In this document: positions 7,467 through 60,871 of the stretch, in pieces
Position numbering within the stretch: the first letter of the stretch is position 1
How the letters are laid out: every line of letters starts with the position of its first letter
From: a virus
Lineage: Duplodnaviria > Caudoviricetes
Strand: one strand, 5' to 3'
Length of the DNA: 64,000 nt
IMG/VR virus record: IMGVR_UViG_3300028410_000746
Notes under the pieces: generated by a model
The model's input: only the letters and a program-made list of their open reading frames with translations
Database searches by the model: none
Told to the model about the DNA's origin: nothing
Translations under genes and position numbers: made by a program

Positions 7467-7983
7467 GGGGACATCCCCGCGTGTGCGGGGAGGGGTTGAC
7501 CGAGCACTGCTTCAGGTTGTCGATGTGGGGGACATCCCCGCGTACACGGGGAGGGGAAAACTTCTCCTGGGGGGTCTCTGCGGGCGCGGGGGACATCCCC
7601 GCGTGTGCGGGGAGGGGTTCCATCACTGCGCAGGAGCCGATGGCGGCGACGGGACATCCCCGCGTGTGCGGGGAGGGGTGCGCGACACAAGTCGTACATA
7701 AGCTCATTGCGGGGACATCCCCGCGTGTGCGGGGAGGGGTGACTCCGAGACCTCCGAGAGTGAGTCGCCGAGGGGACATCCCCGCGTGTGCGGGGAGGGG
7801 AAGCACGTCCGCGTCGGGCTGGTCAAAGCCAAGGGGACATCCCCGCGTGTGCGGGGAGGGGCCCGTCGTCTGGACCGCCGCTGACCTTATGGAGGGGACA
7901 TCCCCGCGTGTGCGGGGAGGGGAACTCATGGCGAGATGGTCTCCCAGGTCATACGGGGACATCCCCGCGTGTGCGGGGAGGGG
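7467..7983 (-). CRISPR. Type I-E-like CRISPR array: 9 repeats of 29 nt, 8 spacers of 32 nt, no cas genes in window
   Basis: GGGGACATCCCCGCGTGTGCGGGGAGGGG (+ strand) at 7467, 7528, 7589, 7650, 7711, 7772, 7833, 7894, 7955 (period 61); minus-sense hairpin CCCCGC-ACAC-GCGGGG; leader at the high-coordinate end. Confidence 0.98.
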
Positions 7984-8123
7984 TCTGTGCCAAGAAGTCA
8001 CATGCGTTAGATCGCGTAAGTATTCGGTTTTCAAAGACTTTCAGGGTTCAGTGTCAAAGAGCGTCACTCTTGGGCGACCCTCTTGACGTCCTTACGGTAA
8101 CCTTGGTGAGGGAGACATGTCAA
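7984..8123 (-). promoter_or_regulatory. CRISPR leader with promoter
   Basis: AT-richer 140 bp abutting repeat 9; TTGACA(8123-8118)-N18-TACCGT(8099-8094); IHF-like TTTCAAAGACTT; second copy at 12025-12164. Confidence 0.8.
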
Positions 8124-10696: not shown

Positions 10697-10789
10697 GACC
10701 AGCTCCGTGTGTGTCTGTGTTGTCTTACACACCCTATATACCACAAGGGGGGGCCGTAAAAACTCATTCAGATTTTCGAGAGCAGTCCA

Positions 10790-10863
10790 TGCGCCGAGTG
10801 GGGCTCGAACCCACAACACGGGGATTTAGAATCCCCTGCTCTAACCCGTTGAGCTATCGGCGC
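10790..10863 (-). tRNA. Amber suppressor-type tRNA (anticodon CTA) on a tRNA-Phe-like scaffold
   Basis: GCGCCGA/TCGGCGC, GCTC/GAGC D-stem, GGGGA-TTCTAAA-TCCCC, GTGGG-TTCGAGC-CCCAC, A73; all stems perfect. Confidence 0.92.
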
Positions 10864-11115: not shown

Positions 11116-11133
11116 CTGACTGAAGACACCCCC

Positions 11134-11162
11134 TATATACCACAAGAAAGAGACCCTGTAAA
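11134..11162 (-). promoter_or_regulatory. Sigma70-type promoter for the ncRNA-ncRNA-tRNA(CUA) unit
   Basis: TTTACA-N17(TGTGG)-TATATA. Confidence 0.75.
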
Positions 11163-11170
11163 ACTACTTC

Positions 11171-11422
11171 TCACTCTTCTTCCGAGGAGTCGTGTTCGGG
11201 ACGGGCGGCGGAAAACGCGTTCAGGAAACGCTCCCGTCGCGCCGCACCCTCGGAGGGCTTCCCGAGCTGAGCTTGGAGGTACGGGATAATAGCCGAAGAG
11301 GCGGCGGGACGGCCTGACCCCCTTGAGAGTGCCTCCAGGATTTGATTGCTGCGCGAGGTACGCCCCACGGAGCCGTTATCTTCATTCGACACGGGGACCT
11401 CCACGTTCATCCAAGGCATCAC
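11171..11422 (-). CDS. Hypothetical protein
   Basis: ATG ORF. Confidence 0.45.
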   Translation of the reverse strand: MMPWMNVEVPVSNEDNGSVGRTSRSNQILEALSRGSGRPAASSAIIPYLQAQLGKPSEGAARRERFLNAFSAARPEHDSSEEE

Positions 11423-11930
11423 GGCCCTTCTGAGTAAGGGTCATCGTCGGGCCGCTCAACTTCACCTGCTCCCAGGTCGCCAACTCGCCTATGGCATAGC
11501 TCAAGGGCTTGAGATCCGGGGCGGCCACGCGAGCCTGAGCCGAATCCATCACAAGCACGTGCCAACGCTCCCCCGTCTTGTCTACGAGACGACACAAGCT
11601 CTTCGCATCCAGGGCTCCGTGTATCCACAGGAGCGACAAGATCGTGAGATGCACATCTTCCAGGGGATAGGTCACCACACTCAGATCACCCTCTCCCGCA
11701 GGGTCACTTGGATCACGAGGGGGAGGCGGCTCAAACTCCGTGAGAGCGCCCTCCTGGGATGTAAGACCCCATTTACGACGCAACGACACCCGCGTGTCCC
11801 GTATCAGGCGGCCTATTCGCACCGTCTTGACGTACTTCCAGCAGGTGATGCTCCAGATGAGCACAAGCAACACGAACACGCTCACGAGAGCATACGATAC
11901 CCACAGAGCGGACGATTCCCACCCCATCAC
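11382..11930 (-). CDS. Hypothetical membrane-anchored protein with wHTH-like C-terminus
   Basis: N-terminal TM segment; ends TLTQKGRDAL. Confidence 0.65.
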   Translation of the reverse strand: MMGWESSALWVSYALVSVFVLLVLIWSITCWKYVKTVRIGRLIRDTRVSLRRKWGLTSQEGALTEFEPPPPRDPSDPAGEGDLSVVTYPLEDVHLTILSLLWIHGALDAKSLCRLVDKTGERWHVLVMDSAQARVAAPDLKPLSYAIGELATWEQVKLSGPTMTLTQKGRDALDERGGPRVE

Positions 11931-11995
11931 AAACCTCCAGTCACGTCAAAGGAGCGTGCCCGTTGTACGAACTGCGCGGCATCAAAGTGCATCCA

Positions 11996-12024
11996 CGGAA
12001 CATCCCCGCGTGTGCGGGGAAGGG
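11996..12024 (-). CRISPR. Solitary CRISPR repeat (26/29 identical to the array consensus)
   Basis: CGGAACATCCCCGCGTGTGCGGGGAAGGG; intact hairpin; no second repeat 61 nt away. Confidence 0.85.
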
Positions 12025-12164
12025 TCTGTGCCAAGAAGTCACATGAGCGGAATCACGTAAGTACTCAGTTTTCAAAGACTTCTCAGGTTCAGCGCCGTTC
12101 GGTGTCACCCTTGGGCGACCCTCTTGACGTCCGTATGGTAACCCTGAGGAGGGAAACCTGTCAA
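12025..12164 (-). promoter_or_regulatory. Second copy of the CRISPR leader
   Basis: Ungapped 140-bp paralogue of 7984-8123; TTGACA-N18-TACCAT retained. Confidence 0.85.
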
Positions 12165-12249
12165 CATGAGCAAGCTTCGCTTCCGCCAATTGCTTCAAAT
12201 GCGCATCCCTCAACCCGAACCTCCTGTCACAGTGTGAGTCCGAAGAGAG

Positions 12250-12278
12250 AGGATACCTCGAAGTCACACACCTGTCAA
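12250..12278 (-). promoter_or_regulatory. Sigma70-type promoter
   Basis: TTGACA-N17-TATCCT immediately after tRNA-Asn. Confidence 0.6.
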
Positions 12279-12279
12279 G

Positions 12280-12350
12280 CTCTGGGACCGGGACTTGAAC
12301 CCGGAAAGATTGGTTAACAGCCAATTATGATACCATTTCATCATCCCAGA
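12280..12350 (-). tRNA. tRNA-Asn(GTT)
   Basis: TCTGGGA/TCCCAGA, ATTGG-CTGTTAA-CCAAT, G73. Confidence 0.9.
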
Positions 12351-12665: not shown

Positions 12666-12745
12666 TGACCTCTCACGGAATCGAACCGTGACCCGCAGGG
12701 GGAGACACCCCCACGTAGGTGAGGAAAAGTCTGCGACAAGAAGTC
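12666..12745 (-). ncRNA. tRNA-like RNA with acceptor stem and T-arm but no canonical D or anticodon arm
   Basis: AATGACTTCT/AGAGGTCATT 10-bp closing stem; CACGG-TTCGATT-CCGTG; GGGGG-TGTCT-CCCCC. Confidence 0.55.
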
Positions 12746-12792
12746 ATTGCACGTGTGTAATCGAGAGACGTAGTGCTCTCATTCCCAAAAGA

Positions 12793-13943: not shown

Positions 13944-13989
13944 GATCGCGCTCCGTCAGAAGGGGTGTGTCGTTTCGTCTCTCACCTCT

Positions 13990-14018
13990 CATATACCACA
14001 ACAGGTATGGGGCGTAAA
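13990..14018 (-). promoter_or_regulatory. Sigma70-type promoter
   Basis: TTTACG-N17(TGTGG)-TATATG. Confidence 0.7.
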
Positions 14019-15581: not shown

Positions 15582-15923
15582 TCACTCCTGCTCATCCTCG
15601 GAAGCGGCCGGTTGAGGGGCCGCAGAGAGGACACAGCGAAGAACCGCCGCCCAGTCAAACGTGATCTCCAGGCCCTTATCGGTCTCCTCGGCTGCCGTCA
15701 CGATCTCCGGGAAGTAGGGGACCATGCTCATGGCCATCTCCCATTGCCACGACGAGTCAGCACCTCCGCGAAACTCTCCGTCTTTGGTGAGCTGGTAGCG
15801 AGACAAGCGCGTCTGGTCAAAGCCCTCCGTGATCATGCTCAGGAGCCAGTCCGTGCCCGTTCGGCCGCCATCCTCTCGGCATAGCAGCCATCCTTGAACG
15901 TCTCTCTCCGGATCTTGCGACAT
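15582..15923 (-). CDS. Hypothetical protein
   Basis: Start reassigned to ATG 15923, which overlaps the upstream stop. Confidence 0.7.
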   Translation of the reverse strand: MSQDPERDVQGWLLCREDGGRTGTDWLLSMITEGFDQTRLSRYQLTKDGEFRGGADSSWQWEMAMSMVPYFPEIVTAAEETDKGLEITFDWAAVLRCVLSAAPQPAASEDEQE

Positions 15924-22247: not shown

Positions 22248-22278
22248 GCACTACCTCTCTGTGTCGATGTACGGACCG

Positions 22279-22307
22279 TGTATACCACACAGAATCGTAA
22301 GCGTAAA
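22279..22307 (-). promoter_or_regulatory. Sigma70-type promoter
   Basis: TTTACG-N17(TGTGG)-TATACA. Confidence 0.7.
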
Positions 22308-26322: not shown

Positions 26323-26633
26323 TGCGCAAACCATGGGTGTGCCGTGACTCCCCGACCGCCGCAGTCGTCACATGGAGGATGAGAATAGAGAACCCCCTCG
26401 CCGCCACACGCGCCACACTCAAGGTCGTAGAGGACCCCTTGGTAGTCACACCTCGCGCAGCCGTCCGGATCTTCCCCGTCTCCTTCCCCTCCGCAGGCCG
26501 GACACGGAATCTCTTCCAGGAAGCCATCCCCCCGACAGACCTCGCACTCGGTCTCCAGGAGGAGATCCTTTCGGACCCCCTCCATCATACAGACCTCGCA
26601 CTCGACGAGCATTGTGGGAGGCATGGGACTCAT
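26319..26633 (-). CDS. DnaJ-type CxxCxGxG repeat protein
   Basis: Six CxxC repeats, most followed by xGxG; no J-domain; coupled to lon. Confidence 0.8.
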   Translation of the reverse strand: MSPMPPTMLVECEVCMMEGVRKDLLLETECEVCRGDGFLEEIPCPACGGEGDGEDPDGCARCDYQGVLYDLECGACGGEGVLYSHPPCDDCGGRGVTAHPWFAQ

Positions 26634-29600
26634 ACAGACGGCTCCTGGACGAAGGGCTCGGTCACCGGGAGAGCCTTGGTCCAGTCACGAAGAACGTCTC
26701 GGAACACCAGCGGCGGAATCTGCTCCACGCGGTCCACCGGGTAGAACGTCATTTCGCTGAGCACCAGGGCGTCCACGTCACGCAGGTCCTTGGTACACTG
26801 CGAGGGCATGATGACCTCACGGATGCCCGCGCGATGCGCGGCGATGACCTTCTCCTTGATGCCGCCGACCGGGAGCACCTGACCCGTGAGCGTAATCTCA
26901 CCGGTCATGGCCACCTCTCGGCGCAGCTTGAGCCCCGCGAAGCGAGAGAGCAAGGCGCTGAACATCGTGATGCCTGCGGAGGGACCATCCTTGGGGATGG
27001 CGCCAGCCGGCACGTGGATGTGAAGGTCGTGCGACTTGATCATGTTGGTGTCTACTCCATACAGATCGCCATGCGCACGCAGGTAGCTCAGGGCAGCCCG
27101 GACAGACTCCTTCATGACGTCTCCGAGCTGGCCCGTCAGCGTCACCTCACCCTTACCCCCTTTCATCGCCTGCACCTCAATGAAGAGGATGTCTCCACCT
27201 ACCGCCGTCCAGGCCAAGCCCGTTGCCACGCCCTCCTGATCCTCACGCTGCGACACCTCCGAGATGTACCGAACGGGACCCAGCGCCTTCTCGACCCGCC
27301 CCATGTCCAGGGGGAACACCGCACCGAGACGCTCAGCCTCCGGAAGCTTGACGACATCCACAGCGATAGAGCGGCACAGGTCTCCCAGCCTACGGTTCAG
27401 GCTACGGACGCCCGCCTCACGGGTGTACTTGTCCACCACGTGGTGGACCACCCCATCCGCGACCTCGATCTGGTCGGGCCCCAGACCGTGGGCGGCTACC
27501 TGCTTGGGGAAGAGATAGCGAGTCGCGATCTCATTCTTCTCGAACATCGTGTAGCTGGGGACCTCCAGGATCTCCATACGGTCACGCAGCGGAGCCGAGA
27601 TCGTATCCAACCGGTTGGCCGTGGCGATGAAGAGGACCTTGGACAGGTCAAGGTCTATCTCCAGGTAGTGGTCGTTGAACGTCGAGTTCTGAGCCGGATC
27701 AAGAACCTCCAGGAACGCGGCGGCGGGGTCGCCTCGGAAGTCCGAGCCCACCTTGTCGATCTCGTCCAGGAGGATGACCGGGTTCATCGTGCCGGCCTTC
27801 TGAAGCGCTCGAACGATGCGGCCCGGCATGGCGCCCACATAGGTACGACGGTGACCACGGATCTCGGACTCGTCGTGCATACCTCCAAGGGAGATGCGCG
27901 CGAACTTGCGGCCCATCGTCCGGGCAATGGACTTGGCGATGGACGTGTTATGCGTCACAATCACGTCATCAGTGATGTAAAGAGAATCAGGAGCAGAGAC
28001 CTTGATGCACTGAGTCTCCTTGACACCTACCGCTACGATATCAGAGATGAACCTCTTGGGAGCGTACTTACTCTTGGAGACCCACCGCTGAGCTTTGGCG
28101 TCACACCAGAAGGGACACTGACCCGCCGACATTGAGACCGTCACGTTGTACGCCAGACGACCCGAACGCCTCTCCCCATCAACCGTATATGACGGCTTTT
28201 TCATCGTCACCCGTGTCACCCCCCCAAGCGACCGGACCAACCACTGCACGTCATCACACAATCGCGTCGACGTCGTACAAAAAGAAACCCTACAACCCGT
28301 CGCGTCTACAGTACCGCCAGTGTCCATCAAGCCCTGCAAAAGAGCGAGCCTCTGCTCTACCGAGCCGTAAAGGTACACATAAGGTACATGCTTTTCGTAC
28401 GAGTAGAGCCCCGTAAGTTCCAGAGCATCCAGCTCCACCTGCAACGCGTCCCGTACAGACCCCTTTCGCCCTGCGGTCAAACGATAGTCACAGGTCTCCG
28501 ACGCTTGCTTGCGCATCCGAACCTCCCCCGGCAAGGCGGCAGCTACGCGTGCGCAAATATCACCCTCTGGGTTTGAAAAACCAACGGAAGCTCCCGTAAG
28601 GCCTCCATCTCCCAAGAGCGCCCCCAAGAGGTACGGGTCAAGGGGTACGGACTTTTCCGCAAACTCCAAGGGCTGGGTCAGAGGGATAGAATGGTTGCGG
28701 CGAGCGTCCGAGCCGTACCGAAGCGTCTCTCGGATTTGCTCCAGAGACTTCACCGACCCCTCACGGGAAGCCTTCCGATCGAGGTCGGTATGCGTGTACC
28801 ACAAGTGCTCGTCGCAACACTCTGTTGATGAGCCGTCTTGAAACTCCACACGATACACCGGCCGCGTGCCTTGAGGGAACGCGCCCTCCACGTGATGAAC
28901 GCCCCCGTCCGCACCCATGACCGCATCACCTACCGCAAGCGTACCCATCGCAACCCAACCCTTCGGGGTCAACACCCGCGCATCCAAAGGCTGCGCCTTG
29001 CCCACACCGGGAGGGCCCACGAAGCACAGGATCGGGCCGTTCATGTCCTGCTTGAGCGCCTGAACAGCCAGATGCTCGACCACCCTTCGCTTCACCTTCT
29101 CCAGGCCGTAGTGGTCCGCGTCGAGCACATCCTCCGCGCGGACGACATCCAGGTTGTCCTCGCTCTCGACGCCCCACGGCACATCGAGCATCTGCTGGAT
29201 GTAGTTGAGCGTCACCGAATACTCGGAGCTGGCCGGCTGCATCGCGTCGAGTCGACGATGCTGCTTCAGGACCGCAGCCTCCACCTCCTCAGGCATGTCT
29301 GCCTCCTGAATACGCTCAAGCAGCTCCTCCGTCTCGGAGATGTCCTCACCGAGCTGGTCCTTGATGACCTTGAGCTGCTGGCGAAGGATGTACTCACGCT
29401 GAATAGACTTGCTGCGCTCCTGGAGCGACTGGTTGATCTCACCCGCCAGCTCCTGGCGCGCGATACGCTCCCCCAGGATGCGCAGACACCGAGACGCGCG
29501 CTCCGTGATGTTCGGCTCCAGGTAGAGAGCCAACAGGTCCTCATCCTCGAAGCGGGGCGCGAGCATGTCTGTAAGGTCTGAGAGGGAGCCCACAGCACGC

Positions 29601-30079
29601 ACGCGCTCGAACTCCTGCTCGGGAGCGTCCGGATCGTCTCCCAGGACCTGAAGCGTCTTCTCCTGAAGCGCCTCGAACAGCGCTTCATTGTACTCCGCCT
29701 CCTTGTCGAACTCCGGTCCAATGACCTCGAAGTGACCCATCAACGGCGCGGAGGCATCCTCCGGAATCTCAAGATCCAGGAGCCTCAGCCTCACCTCCCC
29801 GGAAGAAATGACCGTATAGTCGTTCGCGTTCGGGTTCGGGATGATCTTGATGCAGGACACCAGGGTCGCGATCTCGTGGACCTCATCCATCGAGGACAGC
29901 GTGAGCACGTCCGGAGACTTCTGAAGCACGACCGCGATCTTGAAAGGCGCCGGCGAGTCTGCACCCTCAATGACCGCCAGGGAGCGTGCTCGACCGACCC
30001 GAACAGGGATCATCTGTAGCGGGAAAAGAGGGTTCTCGCGCATGGCGATCACGGGAAGGTACAGGGTGTCAGCGCTCAT
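26630..30079 (-). CDS. lon: ATP-dependent Lon protease (LonA) containing an intein
   Basis: LON N-domain, [25 protein letters not shown]|[28 protein letters not shown]. Confidence 0.97.
27947..28996 (-). mobile_element. Class-3 intein (350 aa) with LAGLIDADG-type homing endonuclease, in the Lon Walker A motif
   Basis: K|[11 protein letters not shown]...HLW...TQCIKV...VTHN|T; LLGALLGDG and [10 protein letters not shown]. Confidence 0.92.
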
Positions 30080-59605: not shown

Positions 59606-60871
59606 TTAGGAATCTTGCCTCGCCTGCACGAGCAGTCCCTCGGCCACAGCCGTCATGGGGTTGCTCGCGCGACGAACCTCGCTGATCTCCAGCGGGAAAC
59701 GCTTGCGGTGCTTCTTGTCAAAGACAGACTCGAAGACCTCGATGAAGCCGTCGGGGAGGCTCGTACCTCCAGAGACGACGATCGGGATGGCCGTCAGCTC
59801 CGTGTCGGACTGCTCGGCCTTGAACTGCTTGGCGATGTGCTTGAGCGCGTAGTTAATCAGGGACTTGTAGTACACGACCAAAGCCTCCTGCTCGCGGCCC
59901 ACAGGGGCAGCCAAGTTGATGCCCTTCTCCTTGATCGTACACATGCGCGAGGCCGTCGTGCCGAGAGCCTGCGCCGACTGTGCGTCAATCCAGTCGCCGC
60001 CGCGCGCGAGCGAGAACTCCATGATCGGAAGGGTCTGGTAGGACAGGGCGATGTTGACCATGCCCGAGCCGAAGCTGATGCCGATACCCGAGAAGGTCTC
60101 CTTGGCACACTCAGCGTAGATGATGGCCATCGCCTCGTTGCCCGAGATCGCCGTGTACCCCAGCTCCTCCAGGATGCGCTCGAAAGCCGCCTCGTGGTAA
60201 ACCACGTCCCTCTCCGGAGCATCCACCGGGGACGCCGGGATCGAGTAGTAGCACACCTCGTCCTCGACCTGCGGCTTGCCCAGTACGCCCTCGATCATGA
60301 TGGAGAGCACCTCCAACGCATCATGCTCCGACGCCGAGATGAGGCCTTGCGCCAGCGGACGGCGCGCCTCACGCTTGAAGAGGTTGGCGAGCTGAAGCGC
60401 GTCATCACCCAGGATCAGGATGTGGTCCTCGTACTCCACGAAGGTCGTGCCTCCGAGCTGGAGCTTGGCCTTGGCGTCCAGGTCCAGGTCCAGGAACGCA
60501 TCGCGCGTTCGGCTGGTGACCACGCCCTCTTCGGACTGCACCGCGCTCACGATGTTCATGGTCCCGATGTCCAGACCCTTGCCAAAGAAGATCTTGGCAG
60601 AGGTGGGCGCAGAGGTGGGCGGGATGAGCGTGGTCTTTCTGTCTTCGGTCATGTCTGTACTCCCAAGTTTCTCGGGGGCCGGAGTGTCATCACCCGGCTC
60701 CGCTGTATGGTAGACCTGAGGCTCGGTCAAAAGCTCAAGGTCCCACTCACCCATGCGACGTCGCACAGTTGAGGAGCTGCACCCTAGCACAGCTTGGATC
60801 TCTCGTACAGTCATTCCTTGTTTGACGAGACGCGTCAAGCGTTGTTTGGTGATGTCCAGCTTTTTAGCCAT
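59606..60871 (-). CDS. Actin-like ATPase (MreB/MamK-like fold) with N-terminal HTH
   Basis: GLDIGTMNIV, NEAMAIIY, ISFGSGMVNI, VSGGTS, PMTAVAEG; N-terminal TVREIQAVLGCSSSTVRRR. Confidence 0.85.
   Translation of the reverse strand: MAKKLDITKQRLTRLVKQGMTVREIQAVLGCSSSTVRRRMGEWDLELLTEPQVYHTAEPGDDTPAPEKLGSTDMTEDRKTTLIPPTSAPTSAKIFFGKGLDIGTMNIVSAVQSEEGVVTSRTRDAFLDLDLDAKAKLQLGGTTFVEYEDHILILGDDALQLANLFKREARRPLAQGLISASEHDALEVLSIMIEGVLGKPQVEDEVCYYSIPASPVDAPERDVVYHEAAFERILEELGYTAISGNEAMAIIYAECAKETFSGIGISFGSGMVNIALSYQTLPIMEFSLARGGDWIDAQSAQALGTTASRMCTIKEKGINLAAPVGREQEALVVYYKSLINYALKHIAKQFKAEQSDTELTAIPIVVSGGTSLPDGFIEVFESVFDKKHRKRFPLEISEVRRASNPMTAVAEGLLVQARQDS

Follow-up and report, generated by a model that had tools for sequence, protein, structure and literature searches.

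A solitary CRISPR leader-repeat unit ahead of two orphan genes in a caudovirus genome

The window analyzed here is a stretch of 64,000 nucleotides from a member of the Caudoviricetes (Duplodnaviria; IMG/VR record IMGVR_UViG_3300028410_000746) and is contained in a 127.7-kb record that covers about one third of the phage genome. It carries a type I-E-like CRISPR array of 9 repeats (29-nt consensus CCCCTCCCCGCACACGCGGGGATGTCCCC) and 8 spacers of 32 nt (7983-7467) and, about 4 kb away on the same (minus) strand, a second leader-repeat unit at 12164-11996 (Table 1). The original prediction had described the latter as a duplicated leader driving a solitary repeat; this anatomy is correct, while the protein operon behind the unit and a third, decayed copy of the cassette had been missed. 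One of the array repeats (7528-7556, minus) shows 3 substitutions in and beside the loop (CCCCGTGTACGCGGGG), with the stem still possible via a G-U pair.

Table 1. Features of the solitary leader-repeat unit, its paralogs and the genes behind it (window coordinates)
Feature	Position	Strand	Description
Array cassette (parent-type)	7467-8123	minus	Promoter and leader 8123-7984, array 7983-7467
Orphan gene 2	11171-11419	minus	82 aa; overlaps the end of gene 1; called in the public contig
Orphan gene 1	11382-11927	minus	181 aa; N-terminal transmembrane helix, C-terminal domain weakly winged-helix-like
Rest of 5' UTR	11928-11963	minus	Ribosome-binding site GGAGG 11938-11934, 6 nt ahead of the ATG
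32-mer	11964-11995	minus	TGGATGCACTTTGATGCCGCGCAGTTCGTACA; first part of the 5' UTR
Solitary repeat, type I-E	11996-12024	minus	CCCTTCCCCGCACACGCGGGGATGTTCCG; 26/29 identical to the array consensus
Repeat-proximal leader, 24 nt	12025-12048	minus	CATGTGACTTCTTGGCACAGAC...; 24/24 identical to the array leader
Solitary leader copy	12025-12164	minus	140 nt; 112/140 identical to 7984-8123, ungapped
Conserved block at the predicted transcript 5' end	12110-12132	minus	GGACGTCAAGAGGGTCGCCCAAG; 23/23 identical in both cassettes
Promoter, sigma-70-type (predicted)	12135-12164	minus	-35 TTGACA 12164-12159, 18-nt spacer, -10 TACCAT 12140-12135
Third cassette copy, decayed	12701-12746	minus	Final 18 nt of the leader followed by a degenerate repeat; promoter absent

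The two leaders are ungapped paralogs over their full 140 nt, and a BLAST search with the entire 169-nt unit recovered the array cassette as the sole other match in the 127.7-kb record (E = 2e-23). The edges of this homology are exact, falling at the -35 box on one side and at the end of the repeat on the other: identity outside the solitary cassette amounts to 21/77 positions past the -35 box and 5/32 past the repeat. The promoter of the solitary copy, predicted by a scan against the consensus (10 of 12 consensus positions matched), reads TTGACA-N18-TACCAT and has a paralogous TTGACA-N18-TACCGT in the array leader, and the block GGGCGACCCTCTTGACGTCC is common to both leaders (12113-12132 and 8072-8091). 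Thus, the leader paralogy, the retained promoter, the shared block and the single repeat with an intact hairpin that were originally pointed out are all borne out. With a predicted transcription start at about 12128, approximately 104 nt of leader would be transcribed ahead of the solitary repeat. An ORF that crosses this leader is flat in codon-position GC, which argues for the leader being non-coding.

The solitary repeat retains the CCCCGC/GCGGGG stem unchanged along with the 8-nt 3' part ATGTTCCG, and its hairpin is present in the minimum-energy fold of the modeled transcript. Going by type I-E biochemistry, Cas6e would be expected to cleave at the 12004/12003 bond, with AUGUUCCG (12003-11996) remaining as the handle. 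The repeat core CCCCGCACACGCGGGGATGT is identical to that found, in Streptomyces and other genomes, in the repeats of arrays with a 61-nt period; this core is generic to type I-E across phyla, and no genome matched shares the full 29-nt repeat or the leader. In terms of array organization, the unit combines a 29-nt repeat bearing a type I-E hairpin and an 8-nt 3' handle region with a leader whose (predicted) promoter adjoins the first repeat; in place of the at least two repeats separated by a spacer that constitute an array, it has the single repeat at 12024-11996.

That no second repeat follows had also been proposed earlier, and the flanks agree with it. Local alignments of either cassette against the 136 nt downstream stay within the shuffled range, as appropriate for the absence of a second or degenerate repeat, and those against the upstream flank (12165-12290) are likewise at chance. 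In the register where a second repeat would be expected, only 6/29 positions match by hand count, and there is no room for one: a further 32 + 29 nt would overrun the ribosome-binding site. Hence the second, usually degenerate, repeat that characterizes loci for crRNA-like RNAs is absent by both measures (6/29; no significant local alignment). The repeat is full-length and intergenic, other repeats, full or partial, being absent within 100 bp, and the public contig has no gene called between the DUF1653 gene and the orphan gene. Its predicted promoter lies 111 nt upstream, a distance exceeding the "immediately" in the definition of promoter-downstream solitary repeat units (SRUs), as the whole leader intervenes.

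The 32 nt behind the repeat were originally described as unique sequence. In the sequences searched they match no target, and no repeat follows them; they form the first part of the 5' UTR of the operon and are not a demonstrated spacer. The target search that had been suggested for them came back empty within the 127.7 kb: the best self-match, 20/32, equals the shuffled mean, and no seed match of at least 9 specified PAM-proximal bases is present. In database searches with every sixth base left free, the 32-mer had no matches in viral_contigs and genome_contigs, chance matches only among the INPHARED phage records and nothing in the individual loci examined. The newest true spacer of the neighboring array, used as a control, likewise matches nothing, and the missing targets of the 32-mer are therefore weak evidence that says little.

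The start codon of the gene behind the unit lies 68 nt past the solitary repeat with no terminator-like site in between; thus, the 32 nt are untranslated leader. Counted from the expected Cas6e cut at 12003, the 5' UTR spans 76 nt; as read from the sequence, the gene start is GGAGG-N6-ATG (11938-11925). This gene (11927-11382) appears real, with a gene-like codon-position GC of 0.62/0.47/0.68 (0.66/0.41/0.76 for the Lon gene of the phage). Its product matches itself alone among 5.8 billion proteins and has no Pfam, PHROG or PADLOC match; its Atlas model gives winged-helix-like structure matches that are weak, with TM below 0.5. The second orphan gene, with a codon-position GC of 0.64/0.53/0.70 and a product without a family match in PHROG/Pfam/PADLOC-type searches, is probably on one transcript with the first. 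Neither protein matches a known anti-CRISPR or defense family.

The 31 mismatches across the two 169-nt units are clustered, such that stretches of 24, 23 and 21 nt are free of them (permutation p = 1.5e-4). The 23-nt run directly follows the -10 box. The leader-repeat junction, comprising the 24 repeat-proximal leader bases and the first 21 nt of the repeat, is 45/46 identical (permutation p = 0.006), as against about 76% for the leader outside the junction and only about 55-65% for some leader parts. Other identical parts are the GAAGTCTTTGAAAAC block and the hairpin. The A-rich TTTGAAAAC block is also kept in both leaders and by eye resembles the GAATGAAAAC-type motif of actinobacterial type I-E leaders and of phage PIS 136. 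Such clustered identity would fit either selection on integration and processing elements or patchy gene conversion among the cassettes.

The third cassette copy (12746-12701) matches at 34/46 positions in register, with a local alignment score of 35 versus a shuffled maximum of 28. It is without a promoter since the DUF1653 gene ends 46 nt upstream. This copy is fused to a canonical T-arm and an acceptor-like strand, with which it makes up a tRNA-like fold (12666-12746, minus; z = -3.25). In this chimeric RNA, the 5' half of which is the decayed leader end plus repeat, ATGACTTCTT from the leader pairs with GAGAGGTCAT as an acceptor-like helix, and the repeat-derived part has two mutually exclusive hairpins available to it, CCUCAC/GUGGGG or GGGGG/CCCCC; neither Rfam nor ARAGORN makes a call for it. 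The decayed copy heads a cluster of minus-strand tRNAs, which extends as far as the solitary cassette, and the three copies—array, solitary and decayed—span no more than 5.3 kb. The presence of a decayed third copy nearby indicates that cassettes are copied locally and can decay, which the solitary unit has not done.

Two further observations concern the tRNA region. A promoter-like TTGACA-N17-TATCCT at 12250-12278 (minus) comes directly after the tRNA-Asn, 114 nt upstream of the solitary-cassette promoter; it has TTGACAGGT in common with that promoter and is then followed by TGTGACTTC, as at the leader end. A fourth cassette fragment at 12165-12290 was considered for sharing TTGACAGGT and TGTGACTTC, yet the similarity is not significant. 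Separately, a tRNA at 10790-10863 (minus) has the anticodon CUA of an amber suppressor; it is labeled Pyl by ARAGORN and scores 68 bits in Rfam.

The solitary locus is 100% identical in three assemblies: a 373,477-bp ENA contig (ERZ27315555, k141_181878), a 2.5-kb JGI contig and a 1.2-kb Logan contig. In a lake-water run, the contig joining the gene, the 32-mer and the repeat has a depth of 15.6 compared to 16.2 for the flank, and the single-repeat form thus accounts for the full depth of the phage; no spacer-bearing variant of the locus is visible in this run. The same run holds a 230-nt contig (depth 14) with at least 4 repeats, spacers of 32, 33 and 35 nt and then the same repeat-proximal leader bases, which we take for another cassette of the same family. 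In a 2,068-nt contig (depth 16.7), a leader segment differing at 2/64 positions from 12057-12120 is joined 121 nt "back" to a piece consisting of the repeat plus the junction. A second lake sample (JGI 3300012271) holds a close, non-identical strain of the phage in the ENA contig, differing upstream of the window, e.g., in a gene of 325 vs 300 aa and in small genes that are extra or missing. Strain-level variation therefore exists, but the solitary-repeat locus was met in identical form only.

More distant relatives of the locus did not surface. Neither the leader block nor the repeat has matches in viral_contigs; the orphan, DUF1653 and RNase T proteins have no close relative there; and a 2.1-kb query around the locus returned tRNA-Tyr similarity alone from the phage records. 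The DNA and protein searches thus offered no orthologous site for comparison. A leader-junction pattern had 3 matches in metagenome_contigs, all in unrelated DNA and attributable to chance, and a spurious ORF across the array, when used as a query, matched bacterial arrays only. The 127.7-kb record contains neither a Cas6e match nor cas genes, and gene look-ups along the contig to its first base brought up no further cassette and no bridging contig. Just past the window end lies a two-repeat, one-spacer array (window 68525-68614; record 71708-71797), in which the 5' part and loop of the repeat differ (GTGTTCCCCGCGCGAGCGGGGATGTCCCG) and the leader is unrelated, with the stem and 3' handle being the same; it belongs to a second family of cassettes in this phage.

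Elsewhere in the window, the motif CCCTATATACCACAA (plus strand; TTGTGGTATATAGGG on the minus strand) occurs at 10717-10746, 11116-11145, 13972-14001 and 22261-22290, in each case intergenic and ahead of minus-strand genes. It probably serves as a promoter motif specific to this phage and separate from the leader promoters of the TTGACA type. Residues 575-627 of the Lon protease (26630-30079, minus; 1149 aa), which lie between its substrate-binding and AAA domains, give a LAGLIDADG-type match, suggesting an intein or homing-endonuclease insertion. A protein encoded at 59606-60871 (minus) combines a strong match to the actin-like Volactin (E = 5e-78) with an N-terminal HTH_23 match, and this is an unusual cytoskeletal-type gene for a phage.

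Our preferred interpretation, held tentatively, is that the unit represents a copy, devoid of spacers, of one of the type I-E cassettes carried by the phage, with its promoter feeding the downstream operon. This arrangement most likely goes back to an array that was empty or had collapsed and that now has its promoter driving the downstream genes, and among the three options offered by the original prediction the empty array is also the one that best fits the junction identity. The cassette would have been copied by recombination or duplication among the dispersed cassettes of the phage, either as a copy that never held spacers or as an array that then collapsed to one repeat. Such a collapse by recombination between repeats is expected. 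As the unit sits in the minus-strand transcription flow, directly ahead of the two-gene orphan operon, it would serve as the proximal promoter of this operon, with the repeat and the following 68 nt as the 5' UTR of the mRNA. A matching Cas6e, if present in the phage or the host, would cut the transcript at the base of the hairpin, yielding a leader-hairpin RNA and an mRNA starting with the handle; the 32 nt after the repeat would have no guide function. The additional same-family cassettes at the same depth in the lake-water run speak for the spacer-less copy. Counting against it are the mismatch pattern, which is unlike that of a freely decaying relic and could reflect constraint or exchange of the kinds considered above, and a predicted pairing between the junction and the ribosome-binding site that would have to be a coincidence.

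This pairing is the basis of an alternative in which the cassette has been co-opted as a portable promoter with a cleavable 5' UTR, making expression dependent on Cas6e: in the uncut transcript the junction would mask the ribosome-binding site, and the Cas6e cut would remove the mask, such that translation occurs only when the CRISPR machinery is present. In a model of the transcript that starts at 12128 and includes the first 37 nt of the gene, most of the SD-to-start region is predicted to be paired, almost exclusively through GGUUUGUG with CACAGACC of the leader-repeat junction (probability about 0.95). The modeled unpaired probability from SD to AUG is 0.16 for this transcript and 0.45 once everything upstream of the Cas6e site is removed; shuffling the upstream sequence gives 0.35 +/- 0.09, and 3% of the shuffles are as low as observed. 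The junction and hairpin being the best-conserved parts, and the decayed copy heading a tRNA cluster, would also suit such a module. However, the masking signal amounts to one 8-bp helix that includes G-U pairs (p ~0.03), the fold energy of the whole transcript is not unusual (z = -1.59), and the conservation of the junction is equally explained by an integration-site constraint or gene conversion. We therefore consider co-option unlikely and view the processing switch as a speculative lead rather than a finding. Its broader form is a little more doubtful still, namely that the cassettes of this huge phage have been turned into portable modules of a host-type promoter and a Cas6e-cleavable hairpin ahead of protein operons, with a phage Cas6e unmasking the ribosome-binding site via CACAGACC:GGUUUGUG. 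The preservation of the junction could also point to a selected, acquisition-ready array seed, i.e., an intact integration site for Cas1-Cas2 that the host or some co-infecting element would provide.

In E. coli type I-E, a leader with a single repeat suffices for spacer integration and so stays integration-competent, with the 20 bp adjacent to the repeat being essential (PMC3384332); here, the 24 repeat-adjacent leader bases and the repeat are nearly unchanged (45/46) and the A-rich block akin to actinobacterial type I-E leader motifs is retained. Against a seed, none of the assemblies or runs covering the solitary locus shows a gained spacer, and a 61-nt insertion would move the promoter away from the operon; we regard it as distinctly unlikely. 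The original prediction had also raised a decoy resembling the RNA anti-CRISPRs (Racr), whose hairpin RNA would bind Cas6e or other Cascade subunits and lower or tune CRISPR activity, be it that of the host, of a competitor or of the phage itself. The intact hairpin and the SRU-like anatomy (a full, intergenic repeat behind a promoter, with no partial repeat nearby) suit a decoy, and a Racr from the literature shares its transcript with a protein gene (PMC10651486). However, the solitary repeat belongs to the phage's own repeat family, making a simple anti-host decoy awkward; a decoy has no need for 104 nt of conserved leader or for a conserved integration junction; and the downstream proteins match no known anti-CRISPR or defense family. 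A decoy thus seems to us a rather improbable explanation. The remaining option, a CreA/CreR- or Cracr-like guide, would place the 8-nt handle, the 32-mer and a long 3' tail in Cascade to repress a promoter by a partial match. Units with a single repeat do exist, as do type I-E crRNA-like RNAs in which a 40-nt 3' tail stays unprocessed (10.1101/2024.10.29.618823; 10.1101/2023.03.03.530964), and the target search covered about one third of the phage genome. Nonetheless, within those 127.7 kb there is no PAM-proximal match of at least 9 bases, the best full-length match is at the shuffled mean, a degenerate repeat downstream is absent, and the 32-mer runs straight into the ribosome-binding site, such that the "guide" would be an mRNA. 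With no support for it in the 127.7 kb, we judge a guide to be very improbable.

The current view takes solitary CRISPR repeats of phages to be either decoys or hijacked regulatory guides, directed against the host. The unit described here joins a repeat of the phage's own family, a whole leader and an intact integration junction to the 5' UTR of an operon. If the cassettes are only empty arrays, they provide a record of the birth, copying and loss of dispersed phage arrays. If they are used, a CRISPR repeat would have become an mRNA-processing or expression signal, and we know of no description of one in such a natural role. A Cas6e-dependent module, if real, would couple accessory-gene expression to the presence of CRISPR machinery and be the natural counterpart of the synthetic Cas6/Csy4 5'-UTR insulators. 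The locus is compact enough for reporter cloning and offers a test case either way.

Viral SRUs behind promoters are known, and some of them are Racrs (Camara-Wilpert et al. 2023, PMC10651486, citing Faure et al. 2019). Like these, the unit has one full intergenic repeat that follows a predicted promoter and lacks a partial repeat within 100 bp, and it shares its presumed transcript with a protein gene, as in RacrIC1-AcrIC5 (PMC10651486). Unlike them, it keeps a complete 140-nt paralog of an array leader, including the integration junction, belongs to a repeat family of which this phage also carries real arrays, and makes up the 5' UTR of an operon. Another parallel in anatomy is the minimal type I-E locus (Yosef et al. 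2012, PMC3384332), which likewise consists of a leader and one repeat with the repeat-proximal leader bases preserved and is what repeat-repeat recombination would be expected to leave behind in the end. It is an engineered locus that was assayed with Cas1-Cas2, whereas the phage unit is natural and doubles as an operon 5' UTR. Regulatory crRNA-like RNAs from mini-arrays or single repeats are known in both hosts and phages (10.1101/2023.03.03.530964; 10.1101/2024.10.29.618823). The unit resembles the CreA/CreR and Cracr systems in having a repeat-derived 5' handle followed by a unique stretch, and a type I-E example among them has a long unprocessed 3' tail; it differs in lacking a promoter target in the 127.7 kb and a second degenerate repeat, and in that its unique stretch enters a gene.

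Among phage-borne arrays, that of the actinophage PIS 136 of Saccharomonospora (JX006077.1, about 15,690-15,890) is similar in being a short, 4-repeat type I-E-like array with the same hairpin core, but it is a normal small array with spacers and an unrelated leader, and no solitary unit was seen there. The four repeats of PIS 136 (ATCCGCCCCGCACACGCGGGGATGAACC) carry no CRISPR annotation in the record, where a gene called as "hypothetical protein" covers part of them. Compact arrays in the absence of acquisition genes have been described from huge phages (Al-Shayeb et al. 2020, PMC7162821), and the phage studied here shares with them the possession of compact phage-borne arrays. The account of those CRISPR-Cas systems (PMC7162821) does not describe leader-plus-single-repeat units heading non-CRISPR operons, whereas the present phage possesses one.
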